DNA of 64,000 bases from Leucoraja ocellata (lineage: Eukaryota). Under the pieces are notes generated by a model. It saw only the letters and a list, made by a program, of their open reading frames with translations. It did not search any database and had not been told where the DNA came from. A program made the translations under genes and the position numbers. Below, piece after piece: positions 6,864 through 17,080 of the stretch (the first letter of the stretch is position 1; each line of letters starts with the position of its first letter). Location of the stretch: positions 682,001-746,000 of the forward strand of contig JAWMAR010000710.1 of the NCBI GenBank assembly GCA_036785375.1, in the 5' to 3' direction.

Positions 6864-7205
6864 TTTTAATACCAAATATTTCGTACTGTTTCAGGATTTT
6901 ATAACTCGGCGATGTTTGTGCCAAGATGAGGGATCCTGCAAATTTAAATGTGAGACGGCGTATCCTCAGATGTACAGTACCATCCTCGCATTTCATGTCT
7001 TGGAACAACTCAAAATGTCTGAATTCAGGGTTCGAATGTTGCATCCACCGACCGGAATTATCTCTCTGTAAACCTATCAGCTGTTGTATTCCTTGCCCGG
7101 AATGTGATGTCCAGCACCAGGCAGCGGGGCCACTTCCAGGATTGGTTGGTCCAAGGAACACAATGACATGCATTTTATTGAAAATATAAATATCATTGGG
7201 GTTAT
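6864..7205 (-). CDS. Gene B D1: V-like Ig domain paralogous to gene A D1/D5; rest of the gene lies outside the window
   Basis: 342 nt open exon, taaacag|..A|gtgagt. NPNDIYIF..GPTNPGSG..WCWTSHSGQ..HLRIRR..AGSLIL..KILKQYEIFGIK. Confidence 0.8.
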
Positions 7206-7946
7206 CTGTTTAAAAAGAGGAACAGTGGAAGTCTTTTAATATAATCATGTATGTTTTATTCCATAGTAATTATTAATCTTGGTATTCCACTGATGCAATA
7301 TTATTATTTTTAATCAAGTGATCATCATATCTAAATGTCACACTATTACTCAAGCAAATGAACAACTCTATTGCACATTTGGTGCAGTTATCAATATATA
7401 CATCAATGATGATAGGTTGAATTTACTGTAATTAGGAGTCACAGGGGAAGGTGTAGTGGATAGGAGGGTGAAAGAGAAACTCAATAGATATGGAGGAGTG
7501 AGTCTGCATTGGTTTCCCATTTGATGGAGGTTTCTAAAGCTGATAGTGAGCATCACTATCGTTTAATGTTCTCCCACAAGTGGCAGCAACATCTCCATCT
7601 TCATAATTTTAGGAAGCCCATGAGAGTTCCTCTCAACCTTCCTTTTACTAAAGTAGAGGTTGCAACGTTGTGGATCTTTTTCAAACTCTCTTGACTGAAG
7701 TGTAAATTCCACTGGCTCAGAATGTAACTTTGCAAAAATTCCAAATTTTACAGACTATTATTTTTCAAATTCTATCCATGATTCAGCTTTTTAAAAGTTG
7801 AATGGTAAACTTTATGGAAATCAGTGATTACACGTTTGTAAAATAAATGGAAATCAGTGGGAATTTTGGATGACTTGGGACGGGACAGCATTGTAGCTGA
7901 AAGCAAATGTGCACAGATTTTACACAGGAGCAGGGGTGGAGATAGG

Positions 7947-8594
7947 TTTCAAGGTCAGTTTATTGTCACATGTACCAATTAAGGTACAGTGAAATTCGAA
8001 TTACCATACAGCCATACTAAAAAAAAGCAACAAGACACACAACTACATAAAAGTTAACATAAACATCCACCACAGCGGATTCTCCACATTCCTCACTGAG
8101 ATGGAAGGCAATAAAGTCTAAGCTTCTTCCTCTTTATTCTCCTGCGGTCAGGGCAGTCGAACCATCCGTGTAGAGGTGGCTGAAACTCCTGCGGCTTGGA
8201 GCTCCCGAAGTCGGTCTCTCACCAGAGACCATGAGCTCCACAATGTTAAATTCAGCAGGCTCCCGCGGTAGAGGTCAGAGGTCGATCCCAGGCAAAGGGA
8301 TTGCGAGCTCAACGATGGTAAATCTGCTGGCTCCCGAGGTGGAGCTCCTGAAGTCAGTCTCCAGTAAAGGCTGCTAATTTCTCGAAGTTAGGCCGCAGTG
8401 CGGACGAAGATACGATTTGAAAAAAAATTGCATCTCCATCGAGATTAGAAAAAGTTTCCCACAACCCTCCCCCCCACATAAAGCAAGCTAAAGAACACTA
8501 ATACATACATTTAACACATACAACCAAACAACAAAAGAAGGAAGGGACAGGCAGACTGTTGGCGAGGCAGCCATTCTTGGTGCCACCTGGTGGA
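7947..8594 (-). mobile_element. Non-autonomous Rex1/Babar-type retroelement
   Basis: 3' end atttcactgtacc..gtacatgtgacaataaa plus short tandem tail; second copy at 62565-63228; no ORF. Confidence 0.65.
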
Positions 8595-8723
8595 ATAAAT
8601 ACCTTATCTGCCTATTGCATGACTTAATGAATCATACAACGTGCAATGGTAAAGACCAAAGATGGGAGTAGGCCATTCAACGCTTCATACATCGCCTACA
8701 ATTCAATAAGATCATGATAATGA

Positions 8724-15770: not shown

Positions 15771-15883
15771 AGTAAGCCTGAGCTAATGTGCTTTCACTGC
15801 TTTCAGCAGATCTGACATTTCTGCTGCAAGAATCAAGAGTGTTTTATCTTCACATTTGCCAAAGCAGTATAATGACATTCTTA

Positions 15884-16207
15884 AGGGCCTGTCCCACCTA
15901 TGCGACTTTCTCGGCGTCGCCGAACATGTTCAACCTGTTGAAAATTCAGCGGCGACCAGAAAGACGCTACAACTCTTTGGGTGACTTGGAGACGTCTCAT
16001 GATCTTAGAGGTGACCCCTGGCGACCTGTGTCACCCGCAACATGTCTCCAGGGTGTTGCCAGTATGGTCGTGAATAGTATCCAAGTCACCCAAAGAGTTG
16101 TAACGTCTTTCTGTTCGCAGCTGAATTTTCAACATGTTGAAAATGTTCGGCGACCTATGACGAGTGCCGGCTGTCGCCGAAAAAGTCGTGTAAGTGGGAC
16201 AAGCCCT
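15884..16207. mobile_element. Harbinger/PIF MITE
   Basis: TIRs AGGGCCTGTCCCAC / GTGGGACAAGCCCT; TTA target-site duplication on both sides. Truncated relative at about 42198-42365. Confidence 0.85.
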
Positions 16208-16923
16208 TTACTTGCAAAAGTATAAACGGTTTGTAAACACAATACTCAATAGATAATATAATAAACAAACATGAAATAAAATAAGTTCTATAAACAAAAT
16301 GTAGATCATCCATCTGTAACATTTGCTTATTTTTCCCCAAAATGTTTTGTGTTAAATCAATGCCAGCTAGGGAAATGCAGGGCACATATAACTTAAAACT
16401 AAGAAATCATGAAGAAATTTTAAAATATAGCTGTGACTGAACTAAATATTTATCCTTCTGTATCTAATTTTTCAAAGGATACTGGTTTACTTGGTCAGGA
16501 ATCTGCTATCTAATATTTTATATTCTCACTCTTTCTTTGTTTTTCTGTGCAATAATTTGGTTAAATTGGAACTCAATCAAATCATTGATCTAAATCAGCA
16601 GCAGCAATGTGAAGGCCATATTCATATTTAAGGGCAGAACCATTTCGACAGACCCGTCTAAATTTCTCTTTCCACGGATGCTGCCTGACCTGGCGCGTGT
16701 TTGCAGCATTTTCTATTCCTTGTATTCCCAACATTTACAATATTCAGTTCATCTGACCACGGGATAGTTGATTATTGAAATGTGTCATATTCAACAGAAG
16801 AAGTGGTTGAAAGAATAACAGATAAAACAGATATAAGATATTTGAACATTACATTCAGATTAAGATTTCACTTGTGGATGGTGAATCCATTATCTGAATT
16901 GTGACTGAAGTTAGATTGCCTAC

Positions 16924-17080
16924 CTTGTGGGAAGAGACTGGTGAAGAGGCGCAGAGACTGAGCAGTAAAACTCCTAGTACGGCGACACACAATAAACTGA
17001 GGTCCCCAGTCTCACTCTGCACGATGAGTGATCTTCATCTCTTGTGAAACAGTTGGCCACATGGGCTTCCTCTTCCTTTC
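16924..17080 (-). promoter_or_regulatory. Putative promoter and non-coding exon 1 of gene B
   Basis: Homologous to gene A 45860-46005 (gaagaggaag...ctcagttta...cttcacca...acaagtgaa); donor AAG|gtaggc at 16924/16923. Confidence 0.45.

Follow-up and report, generated by a model that had tools for sequence, protein, structure and literature searches.

A skate immunoglobulin gene cluster with a predicted activating-type gene beside an ITIM-bearing tandem copy

Which gene do the leader and immunoglobulin (Ig) exons in the left part of this skate locus belong to, and is the neighbouring Ig gene its duplicate? The window, i.e. the whole 64,000-nucleotide stretch of Leucoraja ocellata DNA analyzed here (contig C710), was read in the preliminary description as holding a tandem duplication of a whole receptor gene. 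We consider it reasonably probable that an intact gene, gene A, has its upstream block, leader exon and D1 exon at positions 6864-17099 (minus strand), and that gene A encodes a four-Ig type I membrane protein with the predicted role of an activating-type or tail-less partner to an adjoining ITIM-bearing gene, gene Z. The features of gene A and its surroundings inside the window are as follows (negative positions, used below, lie to the left of the window):

16924..17099, minus strand: upstream block of gene A, a putative non-coding exon 1 or core promoter
11959..12067, minus strand: leader exon of gene A, with the ATG at 12037, coding part 11959-12037 and signal peptide MMVHSKMPPGLVFGVLVALLQSVFTQ, ending SVFTQ
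6864..7205, minus strand: D1 exon of gene A, phase 1 on either side, encoding a V-like Ig domain that is poor in cysteine and ends in KILKQYEIFGIK
8710..11430, plus strand: degraded LINE (endonuclease and reverse transcriptase; Pfam Exo_endo_phos and RVT_1), antisense in the leader-D1 intron of gene A
2497..5577, no strand assigned: insertion in the D1-D2 intron of gene A, with a 603-aa ORF at 3071-4882 (plus strand)
17100..27284, no strand assigned: intergenic part of the A/Z duplication unit, where the upstream sequences of genes A and Z are collinear

Both coding exons named in the preliminary description hold up. The leader exon, which has a candidate acceptor (TTACAG at 12068) and a phase-1 donor (A/GTAAGT), ends in SVFTQ as described and matches the leader of the window's other Ig gene (11959-12037 versus 42566-42649; blastn 11911-12091 versus 42517-42695, 70%). 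It is 100% identical to the leader in the second assembled copy of the locus (the C115 copy) and shares 24 of 27 aligned residues with a little skate RefSeq model, P0057. The D1 exon also ends as described, position 6864 being its exact last base, and shows an AG acceptor, an A/GTGAGT donor and an open frame. The homology claimed for exon 1 or the promoter was borne out as well: 16939-17099 aligns with 45870-46027, 5' of the other gene, at 64% over 163 nt and 55.4 bits, versus 29.7 bits both for the next best match in 164 kb (both strands) and for the maximum of 100 shuffles. The upstream block is 96.7% identical to the region upstream of gene Z. Candidate GT donors lie within about 20 nt after both upstream blocks (16923 and 45861), the one in gene A reading CACAAG/GTAGGC, with its GT at 16923-16922. 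The alignable intron segments claimed alongside these exons (12840-12950 versus 42830-42990; 13434-13464 versus 43554-43580) had to be dropped: word-7 blastn returns only 7-12 nt at E 0.6-3, and no intron-segment homology was found in blastn at E<1e-5.

The D1 domain of gene A lacks the canonical cysteine pair. A Pfam scan gave no match for it at E<=1 and the ESM Atlas no usable match; its AlphaFold2 model (pLDDT 75.9) retrieves Ig V-type structures in Foldseek, the best being Nav beta4, MPZL1, 2B4 and antibody V domains. No D2 exon lies in 1-6863, as stated in the preliminary description, which left the choice between continuation beyond the window and truncation. It is the former that stands: D2 is found at -331 to -600 (C710:681400-681669), 331 bp past the left window edge, followed to the left by D3, D4, a transmembrane exon and one cytoplasmic exon, with D2-D4 placed by tblastn to RefSeq models and to the exons of the other Ig gene. 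All seven recognised exons of gene A have open frames and canonical splice sites, and their junctions reproduce the residues of P0057 (...SVFTQ-N-NPNDIY, FGIK-I-EASP, ITVK-V-TAEP, NLEFS-N-TYTY). This model (LOC129701489, Leucoraja erinacea, 603 aa, 'uncharacterized protein') resembles gene A in D1 (111 of 114 residues identical), in D4 (86 of 86) and at the junctions, but differs in its Gly-type transmembrane segment and two-ITIM tail, an arrangement it shares with the C115 copy.

The other Ig exons in the window turned out to make up one gene with eight Ig domains:

29360..42649, minus strand: 8-Ig gene, a single gene, leader 42566-42649
40993-41325, 38450-38713, 35887-36219 and 35548-35805, minus strand: D1, D2, D3 and D4 of the 8-Ig gene
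33023-33364, 32171-32440, 30929-31258 and 29360-29623, minus strand: D5, D6, D7 and D8 of the 8-Ig gene
27922..28038, minus strand: last coding exon of the 8-Ig gene, a transmembrane segment with lysine and a short tail (NIWIIIVSSYLFLKLIVAFGLICCLKGIKRRNNS)

We rejected a separate gene 'B' made up of the Ig exons at 29-33 kb because five skate and sawfish RefSeq models (P0006, P0011, P0015, P0018 and P0012) splice D4 straight to D5 and because a search with the two leaders as queries found no leader between these exons. The last exon matches the sawfish model P0012 in tblastn at 67-74% identity (E 1e-8 to 1e-11). In Pfam, exons of the D2/D4 type fall to Ig_3/ig and those of the D3 type to V-set, with the D7 exon reaching V-set at E 3.4e-10. 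The D1 of this gene is about 37% identical to that of gene A. Paralogy between the two is upheld, but by sequence gene A and the gene at 41-42 kb are distant paralogs rather than products of one recent whole-gene duplication.

On the same kind of comparison, the true sister of gene A is gene Z, apparently a recent duplicate homogenised by gene conversion, and not the 8-Ig gene. Gene Z lies outside the window, 46 kb to the left of gene A; it is collinear with gene A and carries an ITIM exon (KEDIHYGSISF, at -66834 to -66778). The two form collinear tandem copies whose units measure about 43 kb and 35 kb and whose divergence is mosaic. Blastn follows the collinearity at 84-97% identity from 17769 to -15336, and extends it upstream to 27284 through segments 17000-17769, 17811-19126, 20025-21974 and 27057-27284, which match -33589 to -20340 at 87-95%. 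Introns flanking D1 diverge by 6-13%, versus mostly 1-6% elsewhere and 5-10% around the transmembrane and cytoplasmic exons. Between the D1 domains of A and Z amino-acid identity is 68%, and Nd is 38.5 against an Sd of 4.5, giving a dN/dS of 2.3 that rests on few synonymous sites. Since synonymous sites are so few and the D1-flanking introns are also diverged, positive selection is inseparable here from gene conversion or an old lineage.

Where A and Z part company is in the membrane anchor and the tail. The transmembrane exon reads TYTYIIIIRCLAVLLIIIVGVVVCLKKSKYKG in gene A and TYTYIIITIIGSLALLLIVILGVVLCLKKCKNKG in gene Z, the former having an arginine and a two-codon deletion. This arginine exon occurs a single time in the assembly. 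It is identical at 32 of 32 residues, arginine included, to a thorny skate model (P0059; LOC116978409, Amblyraja radiata, 233 aa, 'uncharacterized protein'), which the transmembrane exons of gene Z and of the C115 copy match at only 24 of 32. Unlike gene A, the P0059 model is without D1 and D4, and it ends in the six-residue tail GNIFEY. A GNIFEY-stop exon is present in gene A at -10092 to -10072, but its acceptor reads TGG, versus CAG in gene Z and the C115 copy, a possible sign that the usual 3' end of gene A is being lost. The frame opened by a new upstream AG in gene A (YLNI...YNRS) was considered as ITAM-like and rejected because its spacing and fourth residue do not fit the consensus. 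Of the cytoplasmic exons only the AEYMSV exon is retained, with its acceptor intact and phase 1 kept. In the 31 kb downstream of gene A we found no LYSN exon and no ITIM exon, the latter by regular expression and by a tblastn search at E<=5 that used 56 tails. Within the hydrophobic stretch the arginine sits close to the outer end, and it might do no more than snorkel. Still, an arginine anchor together with the lack of detected inhibitory tail exons makes gene A the likely activating partner of an inhibitory twin.

Gene A could instead be a partial duplicate in decay, on its way to becoming a pseudogene. The duplication unit would have ended in the cytoplasmic region, leaving A without the ITIM and LYSN exons and without the acceptor of the short terminal exon, and the ectodomain exons would be open only through repair by gene conversion from Z. 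The missing exons and the TGG acceptor agree with this, as do the end of A/Z collinearity at -15336, just past one cytoplasmic exon, two transposable-element insertions within the introns of gene A, and the three D1 changes relative to the C115 copy, all of which (3/3) are non-synonymous. We nevertheless regard decay as unlikely, if a serious competitor. All seven recognised exons are open and canonically spliced, the retained cytoplasmic exon has kept its acceptor and phase, and RefSeq isoforms of relatives (P0018, P0020 and P0047) skip the LYSN exon too. Identity of the arginine exon with a gene model from another skate genus argues for long-term purifying selection on the very exon that distinguishes A. 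A related idea, that A and Z arose by a recent partial duplication that merely cut off the tail of A, was revised because the thorny skate model shows the arginine membrane exon to be old.

The other assembled copy of the locus raises the question of whether A and Z are two genes at all. At the A/Z position C115 holds only one gene, whose D1 is of the A type (97%) and whose transmembrane segment and tail are of the Z type (100%), the tail including the ITIM exon KEDIHYGSISF plus NLVIYAQISQTTYE; both this copy and P0057 carry both ITIMs on an A-type D1. From this, the pair could be an assembly artefact, two haplotypes of one gene placed in tandem on C710, with A an allele of the one ITIM-bearing gene that C115 and the little skate reference show. 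That C710 is short (770 kb) and mirrors part of a 6.85-Mb contig agrees with such an error, and a database search gave no Z-type D1 from little skate (2 matches among 39 candidates). We find it highly improbable: A and Z contain blocks up to 13% different and each has private transposable-element insertions, their transmembrane exons differ and one matches a separate thorny skate gene, the duplication extends over about 10 kb of upstream intergenic sequence that is collinear but has indels of its own, and the A-Z interval is gap-free, the only N run being at -70656 to -70457.

The wider claim of an expanded multigene cluster was amply supported. The genome contains at least 120 D1-like matches, of which 87 are without in-frame stops; 15 lie on C710 and 13 on C115. 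In one database search (92 candidates), 56 of 56 matches at E<=1e-5 are elasmobranch proteins, of 340-1720 aa. Gene A is, by its sequence features, a member of an elasmobranch-wide (V-C2)n Ig family annotated in RefSeq only as "uncharacterized": its D1 shows the pattern GP...W.W..H...L.I...F..AG...Q...K.LKQ.E.FGIK (15 invariant columns among 9 aligned D1 exons), and its domains come in the order V-like, C2, V-set, C2, with one phase-1 exon each. A literature search found no paper on this receptor family. Gene Z, the C115 copy and P0057 bear the tail motifs of inhibitory members (LYSN, AEYxxV, EDIHYGSI, SVIYAQI), of which gene A retains only the AEYxxV type, in its AEYMSV exon. Relatives with charged transmembrane segments and short tails include the 8-Ig gene, P0012, P0022, P0050 and P0058, the last carrying a lysine membrane residue on an A/Z-like ectodomain. 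By its exons gene A would belong to this short-tail, charged-membrane subtype rather than to the inhibitory members, its short tail being putative in view of the TGG acceptor. The suggestion of anchored or decoy members beside signalling ones held in part: the family does mix ITIM and charged-transmembrane short-tail members, and no GPI or decoy evidence was found for gene A. Genome searches with the lysine membrane exon and the ITIM exon matched only themselves and their C115 counterparts, and such short-exon searches are therefore useless for counting subtypes.

Could this family be a lineage-specific expansion of CD4/LAG-3-type co-receptors, making gene A an MHC class II-binding molecule and not an innate paired receptor? 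The D1 end FGIK of gene A presumably recalls the ending of CD4 D1. According to PMC10768021, the V-C2-V-C2 ectodomain of CD4 and LAG-3 is thought to come from a V-C2 duplication, both proteins have a WxC motif in strand F of D2 and of D4, and the tails carry Cx(C/H) in CD4 and (F/Y)xxL(D/E) in LAG-3. Gene A has the same domain order, each domain in a phase-1 exon, and WxC in D4 (NWRCGLF, KWICGLF in the family), and some skate members share with the LAG-3 tail, as described there, a tyrosine-based inhibitory motif. In D2, however, WxC is replaced by YxC or FxC (MYNCEV in gene A, or QFVCEV), and in D6 the cysteine is lost (LYTWEV). Reading of 56 family tails showed neither Cx(C/H) nor (F/Y)xxL(D/E) to be conserved, with IxYxxI and VxYxxI ITIMs instead. 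Searched against the PDB, the family profile has no CD4 or LAG-3 among its 60 best sequences, where PD-L1, PD-1, neurotrimin and CEACAM1 are present; with the D1 profile CD4 scores no better than E 0.95, and the best Foldseek structures listed above are of other proteins. The family also has at least 120 copies and 4 to 16 domains, versus a single-copy, four-domain CD4 and LAG-3. On the whole, a co-receptor expansion seems to us very unlikely.

In CEACAM proteins an IgV-like N domain that lacks the disulfide is followed by C2-type domains alone, and the CEACAM1-L tail has a pair of motifs, xYxxLNF ... IIYSEV in type, similar to the skate IHYGSISF ... VIYAQI. The two families also have in common a V-like N domain without canonical cysteines, paired and short-tail forms, and rapid lineage-specific expansion. 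Unlike in CEACAM, the skate D3 and D7 are disulfide-bonded V-set and not C2 domains, and the whole leader is in its own exon; the only CEACAM1 match to the family profile is weak, a single C2-like stretch at E 5e-4. Little skate ESTs are termed CEACAM homologs in PMC3628338 and PMC4079198, with FF598979, EE990618 and FF601895 named in the former. Identity with UrIg/UrIg2 was rejected, as these, according to PMC12227049, combine V-C1 domains with a split leader and with canonical disulfides.

Our best reading of the sequences remains that the cluster may encode paired activating and inhibitory receptors. The genomic pattern agrees, with ITIMs in gene Z and the C115 copy, an arginine in gene A, and a lysine in the 8-Ig gene and P0058. 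With the known paired clusters (KIR, LILR/PIR, chicken CHIR, teleost NITR/LITR, Siglec-5/14, SIRP) the skate locus shares a tandem multigene organization, ITIM-tailed members beside short-tail members with a basic membrane residue, a neighbour pair with near-identical ectodomains whose membrane-distal domain is the most diverged, and variable gene content, in skate between the two assembled copies. The skate family differs from them in having no detectable sequence relationship, in its repeated V-C2 pairs (4, 8, up to about 16 domains), in a D1 without canonical cysteines and in its restriction to elasmobranch proteins in the one database search for relatives.

Under this paired-receptor reading, D1 would be the ligand-binding domain; ITIM forms would recruit SH2 phosphatases, the arginine and lysine membrane forms would pair with an acidic ITAM adaptor, and gene conversion would keep the ectodomains of the A/Z pair alike. 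Sharks, skates and rays have the oldest antibody/TCR/MHC immune system, yet a large family of paired Ig receptors on a par with KIR, LILR, CHIR or NITR is not known to have been described for them. We tentatively put forward, as a joint proposal that may well prove wrong in some part, that these genes serve cartilaginous fish as a paired receptor system, built of repeated V-C2 units and corresponding in function to KIR/LILR/NITR, and that these units may be related by descent to the V-C2 duplication from which CD4 and LAG-3 arose. In the same proposal, activating (Arg/Lys anchor) and inhibitory (two-ITIM) genes would adjoin and swap ectodomain exons by gene conversion, D1 would diversify fastest, and haplotypes would differ in having an activating gene at all, C710 with A and Z against C115 with one A-type ITIM gene. 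What lends it interest is that a single 120-kb stretch holds an ITIM gene, a neighbour with nearly the same ectodomain and an arginine anchor conserved across skate genera, and a lysine-anchored eight-domain neighbour, together with block-wise homogenisation, a fast-diverging tip domain and a gene-content difference between two assembled copies. If expression and adaptor pairing hold true, these would be candidates for innate receptors, of the self/non-self kind or driven by pathogens, at the root of the jawed vertebrates, and a natural case of activating receptors arising from inhibitory ones.

Two minor observations concern names and repeats. No paper linked to the name 'obscurin-like' for this family was found in the literature; on the relatives P0010 and P0044 it is a mere database name. 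The 603-aa ORF of the insertion in the D1-D2 intron gave no match in a Pfam scan; it is flanked by 300-nt direct repeats, 99% identical, and about 3207-5238 of the insertion is missing from gene Z and the C115 copy. The LINE in the leader-D1 intron is also in the C115 copy and missing from gene Z, and further copies of this repeat lie in the window at 24.9-26.3 kb and 51.9-53.8 kb.

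All genes treated here lie on the minus strand: gene A, a four-Ig-domain receptor gene; gene Z, its copy to the left of the window; and a neighbouring gene with eight Ig domains (8-Ig gene). The window (G000:C710:682001-746000) belongs to a 3.44 Gb genome in 5847 contigs. Sites to its left, in adjoining stretches of C710, carry negative window coordinates, the C710 position being 682000 + x. Translated on the minus strand, the window yields SVFTQ just twice, at 11960-11974 and 42566-42580, and a peptide ending in FGIK three times, at 6865, 33023 and 40993. The leader exon ending in SVFTQ and the D1 exon that had been proposed for gene A were both recovered, the second SVFTQ belonging to the other gene; in gene A, a TTACAG acceptor precedes the leader ATG by 30 nt. 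Using tblastn with the window Ig exons and skate proteins, we found no D2-type exon in 1-6863, as the preliminary description had stated. It had suggested that the gene either continues beyond the window or is truncated, and had proposed searching the flanking scaffold with the Ig exons. The same queries located D2 to D4 left of the window, followed by transmembrane and cytoplasmic exons.

Exons of gene A (outer exons placed by tblastn)
Leader exon, minus strand: reads MMVHSKMPPGLVFGVLVALLQSVFTQ, then one extra base and GTAAGT
6864-7205, minus strand: D1 exon; AACAG acceptor, 114-codon open frame, A/GTGAGT donor, phase 1
-331 to -600, minus strand: D2 exon
about -5085 to -5426, minus strand: D3 exon
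about -5555 to -5815, minus strand: D4 exon
-9060 to -9155, minus strand: transmembrane exon
-15052 to -15135, minus strand: cytoplasmic exon, GNEAPIPETSNPAEYMSVDRNAKQE

All these exons are open, AG/GT-flanked and in phase 1, and the junction residues are those of the little skate RefSeq model LOC129701489 (P0057). Gene A thus continues past the window edge, neither cut off there nor a lone D1 fragment; of the two earlier options, continuation holds and truncation does not.

A Pfam scan of the exons of the 8-Ig gene and of gene A D1 assigned generic Ig or C2-like domains to exons of the D2 and D4 types and V-set to that of the D3 type, with no domain in D1. Gene A D2-D4 match the corresponding 8-Ig gene exons by tblastn. 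Across nine aligned D1 exons of the Leucoraja ocellata genome, 15 positions are invariant and a conserved cysteine pair is lacking. AlphaFold2 models gene A D1 as a beta sandwich (mean pLDDT 75.9), whose best Foldseek matches are V-type domains of sodium-channel beta4, MPZL1, 2B4, nectin-1 and antibody VH (TM 0.5-0.6). Together, these results give an ectodomain of the order V-like, C2, V, C2.

The second Ig locus of the window has a different status. In five RefSeq models from skates and a sawfish, another D1-like domain follows immediately on the first D4, and the two window leaders, used as queries, detected no further leader in the interval 33.4-35.5 kb; the exons between 42649 and 29360 therefore make up a single 8-Ig gene. 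Its D1 is only ~37% identical to that of gene A, which makes it a distant paralog. The Ig exons at 27922-42649 (minus), perhaps counted at first as separate genes, are those of the 8-Ig gene, whose architecture is that of sawfish LOC127569165 (P0012). Its terminal exon occurs once in the genome, apart from a counterpart on C115, the contig with a second assembled copy of the locus.

Exons of the neighbouring genes
27922-28038, minus strand: 8-Ig gene terminal membrane exon, lysine-bearing, 9-residue tail
Leader -37232, D1 -39182, minus strand: gene Z, starting 46 kb left of gene A
-66834 to -66778, minus strand: gene Z ITIM exon, KEDIHYGSISF

The true sister of gene A is gene Z, outside the window, rather than the 8-Ig gene. 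The whole-gene tandem duplication proposed initially applies to genes A and Z, not to the distantly related 8-Ig gene. Over gene A coordinates 17769 to -15336, the two copies align collinearly with 84-97% nucleotide identity, and collinearity extends through upstream intergenic sequence to 27284. Transposable-element insertions account for most of the difference between the duplication units, about 43 kb for gene A and 35 kb for gene Z. Divergence by substitution is mosaic: mostly 1-6%, rising to 6-13% in a ~6-kb block around D1 and to 5-10% near the membrane and cytoplasmic exons. The D1 domains share 68% protein identity, with 38.5 non-synonymous versus 4.5 synonymous differences (dN/dS 2.3). 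This may reflect positive selection, an old lineage or gene conversion in blocks, which cannot be separated because synonymous sites are few and the flanking introns equally diverged. The D1-D2 intron of gene A also carries 300-nt direct repeats (2497-2796 and 5278-5577, 99% identical) flanking a plus-strand ORF of 603 codons (3071-4882) with no Pfam match; as ~3207-5238 is missing from gene Z and C115, this insertion or duplication is recent.

The tail of gene Z comprises a Gly-type membrane exon, LYSN, two AEY/AES exons and the ITIM (inhibitory tail motif) exon, after which an assembly gap spans -70656 to -70457. At the matching place C115 has a single gene, with leader and D1 100% and 97% identical to gene A, membrane and ITIM exons 100% identical to gene Z, and last exon NLVIYAQISQTTYE; little skate P0057 has the same architecture. 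The contigs, which may represent alleles or a recent segmental duplication, thus carry different gene sets: C710:600000-710000 holds genes A (Arg anchor) and Z (ITIM), and C115:4255001-4305000 a single mosaic gene in which a Z-type tail goes with an A-type D1. The A-type D1 lies 26.2 kb from the D5 exon of the 8-Ig gene on C710 and 57.9 kb from it on C115.

In the membrane exon of gene A, a 6-nt deletion and a change of GGA AGT to AGA TGT give TYTYIIIIRCLAVLL... This Arg exon occurs once in the assembly. When the open frame around it was used as a database query, the single protein matched was Amblyraja radiata LOC116978409 (P0059), ending ...DTYTYIIIIRCLAVLLIIIVGVVVCLKKSKYKGNIFEY, whose membrane segment is identical to gene A at 32/32 positions, versus 24/32 for gene Z and for the C115 copy. 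In D2 and D3, by contrast, P0059 resembles gene A, gene Z and the C115 copy to about the same degree. The Arg-type and Gly/ITIM-type 3' ends thus parted before the Leucoraja/Amblyraja divergence, with ectodomains probably homogenised within species, a pattern typical of paired receptors.

Gene A has no LYSN exon, and neither a regular expression nor tblastn with 56 family tails (E<=5) found an ITIM exon in the 31 kb down to gene Z. A GNIFEY-stop coding sequence is present 0.9 kb downstream of its membrane exon; the acceptor reads TGG, versus CAG in gene Z and the C115 copy (GNIFKY-stop), and an AG has been gained 51 nt upstream. The gene A mRNA may end instead with the intact AEYMSV exon, by read-through to a stop 41 codons on, with a poly(A) signal near -15399. 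In gene Z and the C115 gene, the short terminal exon CAG/GGAATATATTTAAATATTGA lies 0.5-0.9 kb after the membrane exon (C710:630240-631672, window -51760 to -50328; C115:4282280-4283000). By alternative splicing of this exon, ITIM-type genes may also make a short-tail isoform.

A search for relatives with a D3-type exon (E<=1e-5, 92 candidates) returned 56 proteins, 56/56 from sharks, rays and skates, with best identities of 84-87%, to skates. At 340-1720 aa, they span 4, 8 or as many as about 16 Ig domains, and all are named 'uncharacterized' or 'hypothetical' except two 'obscurin-like' entries. Typical tails contain LYSN, AEYxxV, EDIHYGSIxF and SSVIYAQI, the last two fitting the ITIM consensus; a minority (P0012, P0022, P0050) have a lysine in the membrane segment and a short tail. 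The classification of terminal exons suggested beforehand thus yields an ITIM tail (gene Z), an arginine (gene A) and a lysine (8-Ig gene). Searching the genome with gene A D1 (E<=0.01, 136 candidates scored) gave 120 D1-like matches, 87 without in-frame stop, with 15 along the 770-kb C710 and 13 along the mirrored part of C115. The expanded multigene cluster that had been anticipated is real. Some 30 near-identical D1-like copies on small contigs (for example, C4027, C4062, C4184 and C4235) carry one TGA in a 136-codon frame, with identical scores and 35% identity to gene A D1; this pattern suggests a single pseudogene copy that was amplified as part of a larger repeat unit.

Among known families, CD4/LAG-3 share the V-C2-V-C2 plan and a WxC in D4; however, the elasmobranch family lacks WxC in D2 and the CD4/LAG-3 tail motifs, as far as these features are set out in PMC10768021. 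It also fails on sequence and fold similarity. Like the elasmobranch family, CEACAM1 has an N domain that lacks a disulfide and a tail with two motifs, but in the elasmobranch proteins D3 and D7 are genuine V-set domains, and the family profile gave only one, weak, CEACAM1 match. Little skate ESTs are named CEACAM homologs in two papers (PMC3628338, PMC4079198). UrIg/UrIg2 were rejected as unrelated in architecture. Full-text searches covering few subscription journals yielded no description of the elasmobranch family. The closest functional analogues would be KIR, LILR, CHIR, NITR and Siglec-5/14-type pairs.

Beside the observed domain order, signal peptide, membrane segments, motifs, duplication structure and cross-species conservation, a function can be proposed by analogy with ITIM receptors and with receptors that have a basic membrane residue. 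D1 would touch ligand; Z-type proteins would inhibit through SH2 phosphatase recruitment; and the forms with Arg or Lys would associate with an acidic ITAM adaptor to activate or, alternatively, act as tail-less competitors. With moderate confidence, we read gene A as an intact charged-anchor subtype member paired with gene Z; within this combined reading, whether the predicted gene A is functional in the C710 haplotype is close to an even call.

Upstream, a conserved block at 16939-17099, 4.9 kb from the gene A leader, aligns with 45870-46027, 3.2 kb from the 8-Ig gene leader (64% over 163 nt). Its 55.4 bits stand against 29.7 bits for both the next best match in 164 kb and the best of 100 shuffles, and a plausible GT donor follows each copy, so the homology is real. 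Of the 'exon 1/promoter' homology claimed earlier, the homology stands, and the block is a putative exon. The two intron alignments reported with it (12840-12950 vs 42830-42990; 13434-13464 vs 43554-43580) could not be reproduced by blastn. The window also has 14 + 11 copies of a short interspersed repeat, in both orientations (core ...CTGGAGTAACTCAGCGGGTC...GCAGCATCT...; at 12366-12438 plus 13 further sites, and at 59433-59494 plus 10 further sites); this repeat explains several of the non-collinear matches that link the two gene regions and that could be taken for intron homology. GC-rich stretches at 19200-20050 and 46600-47600 (up to 54% GC), in which both strands have long, overlapping open frames and peptide-like units recur internally, are probably minisatellite-like repeats rather than genes.
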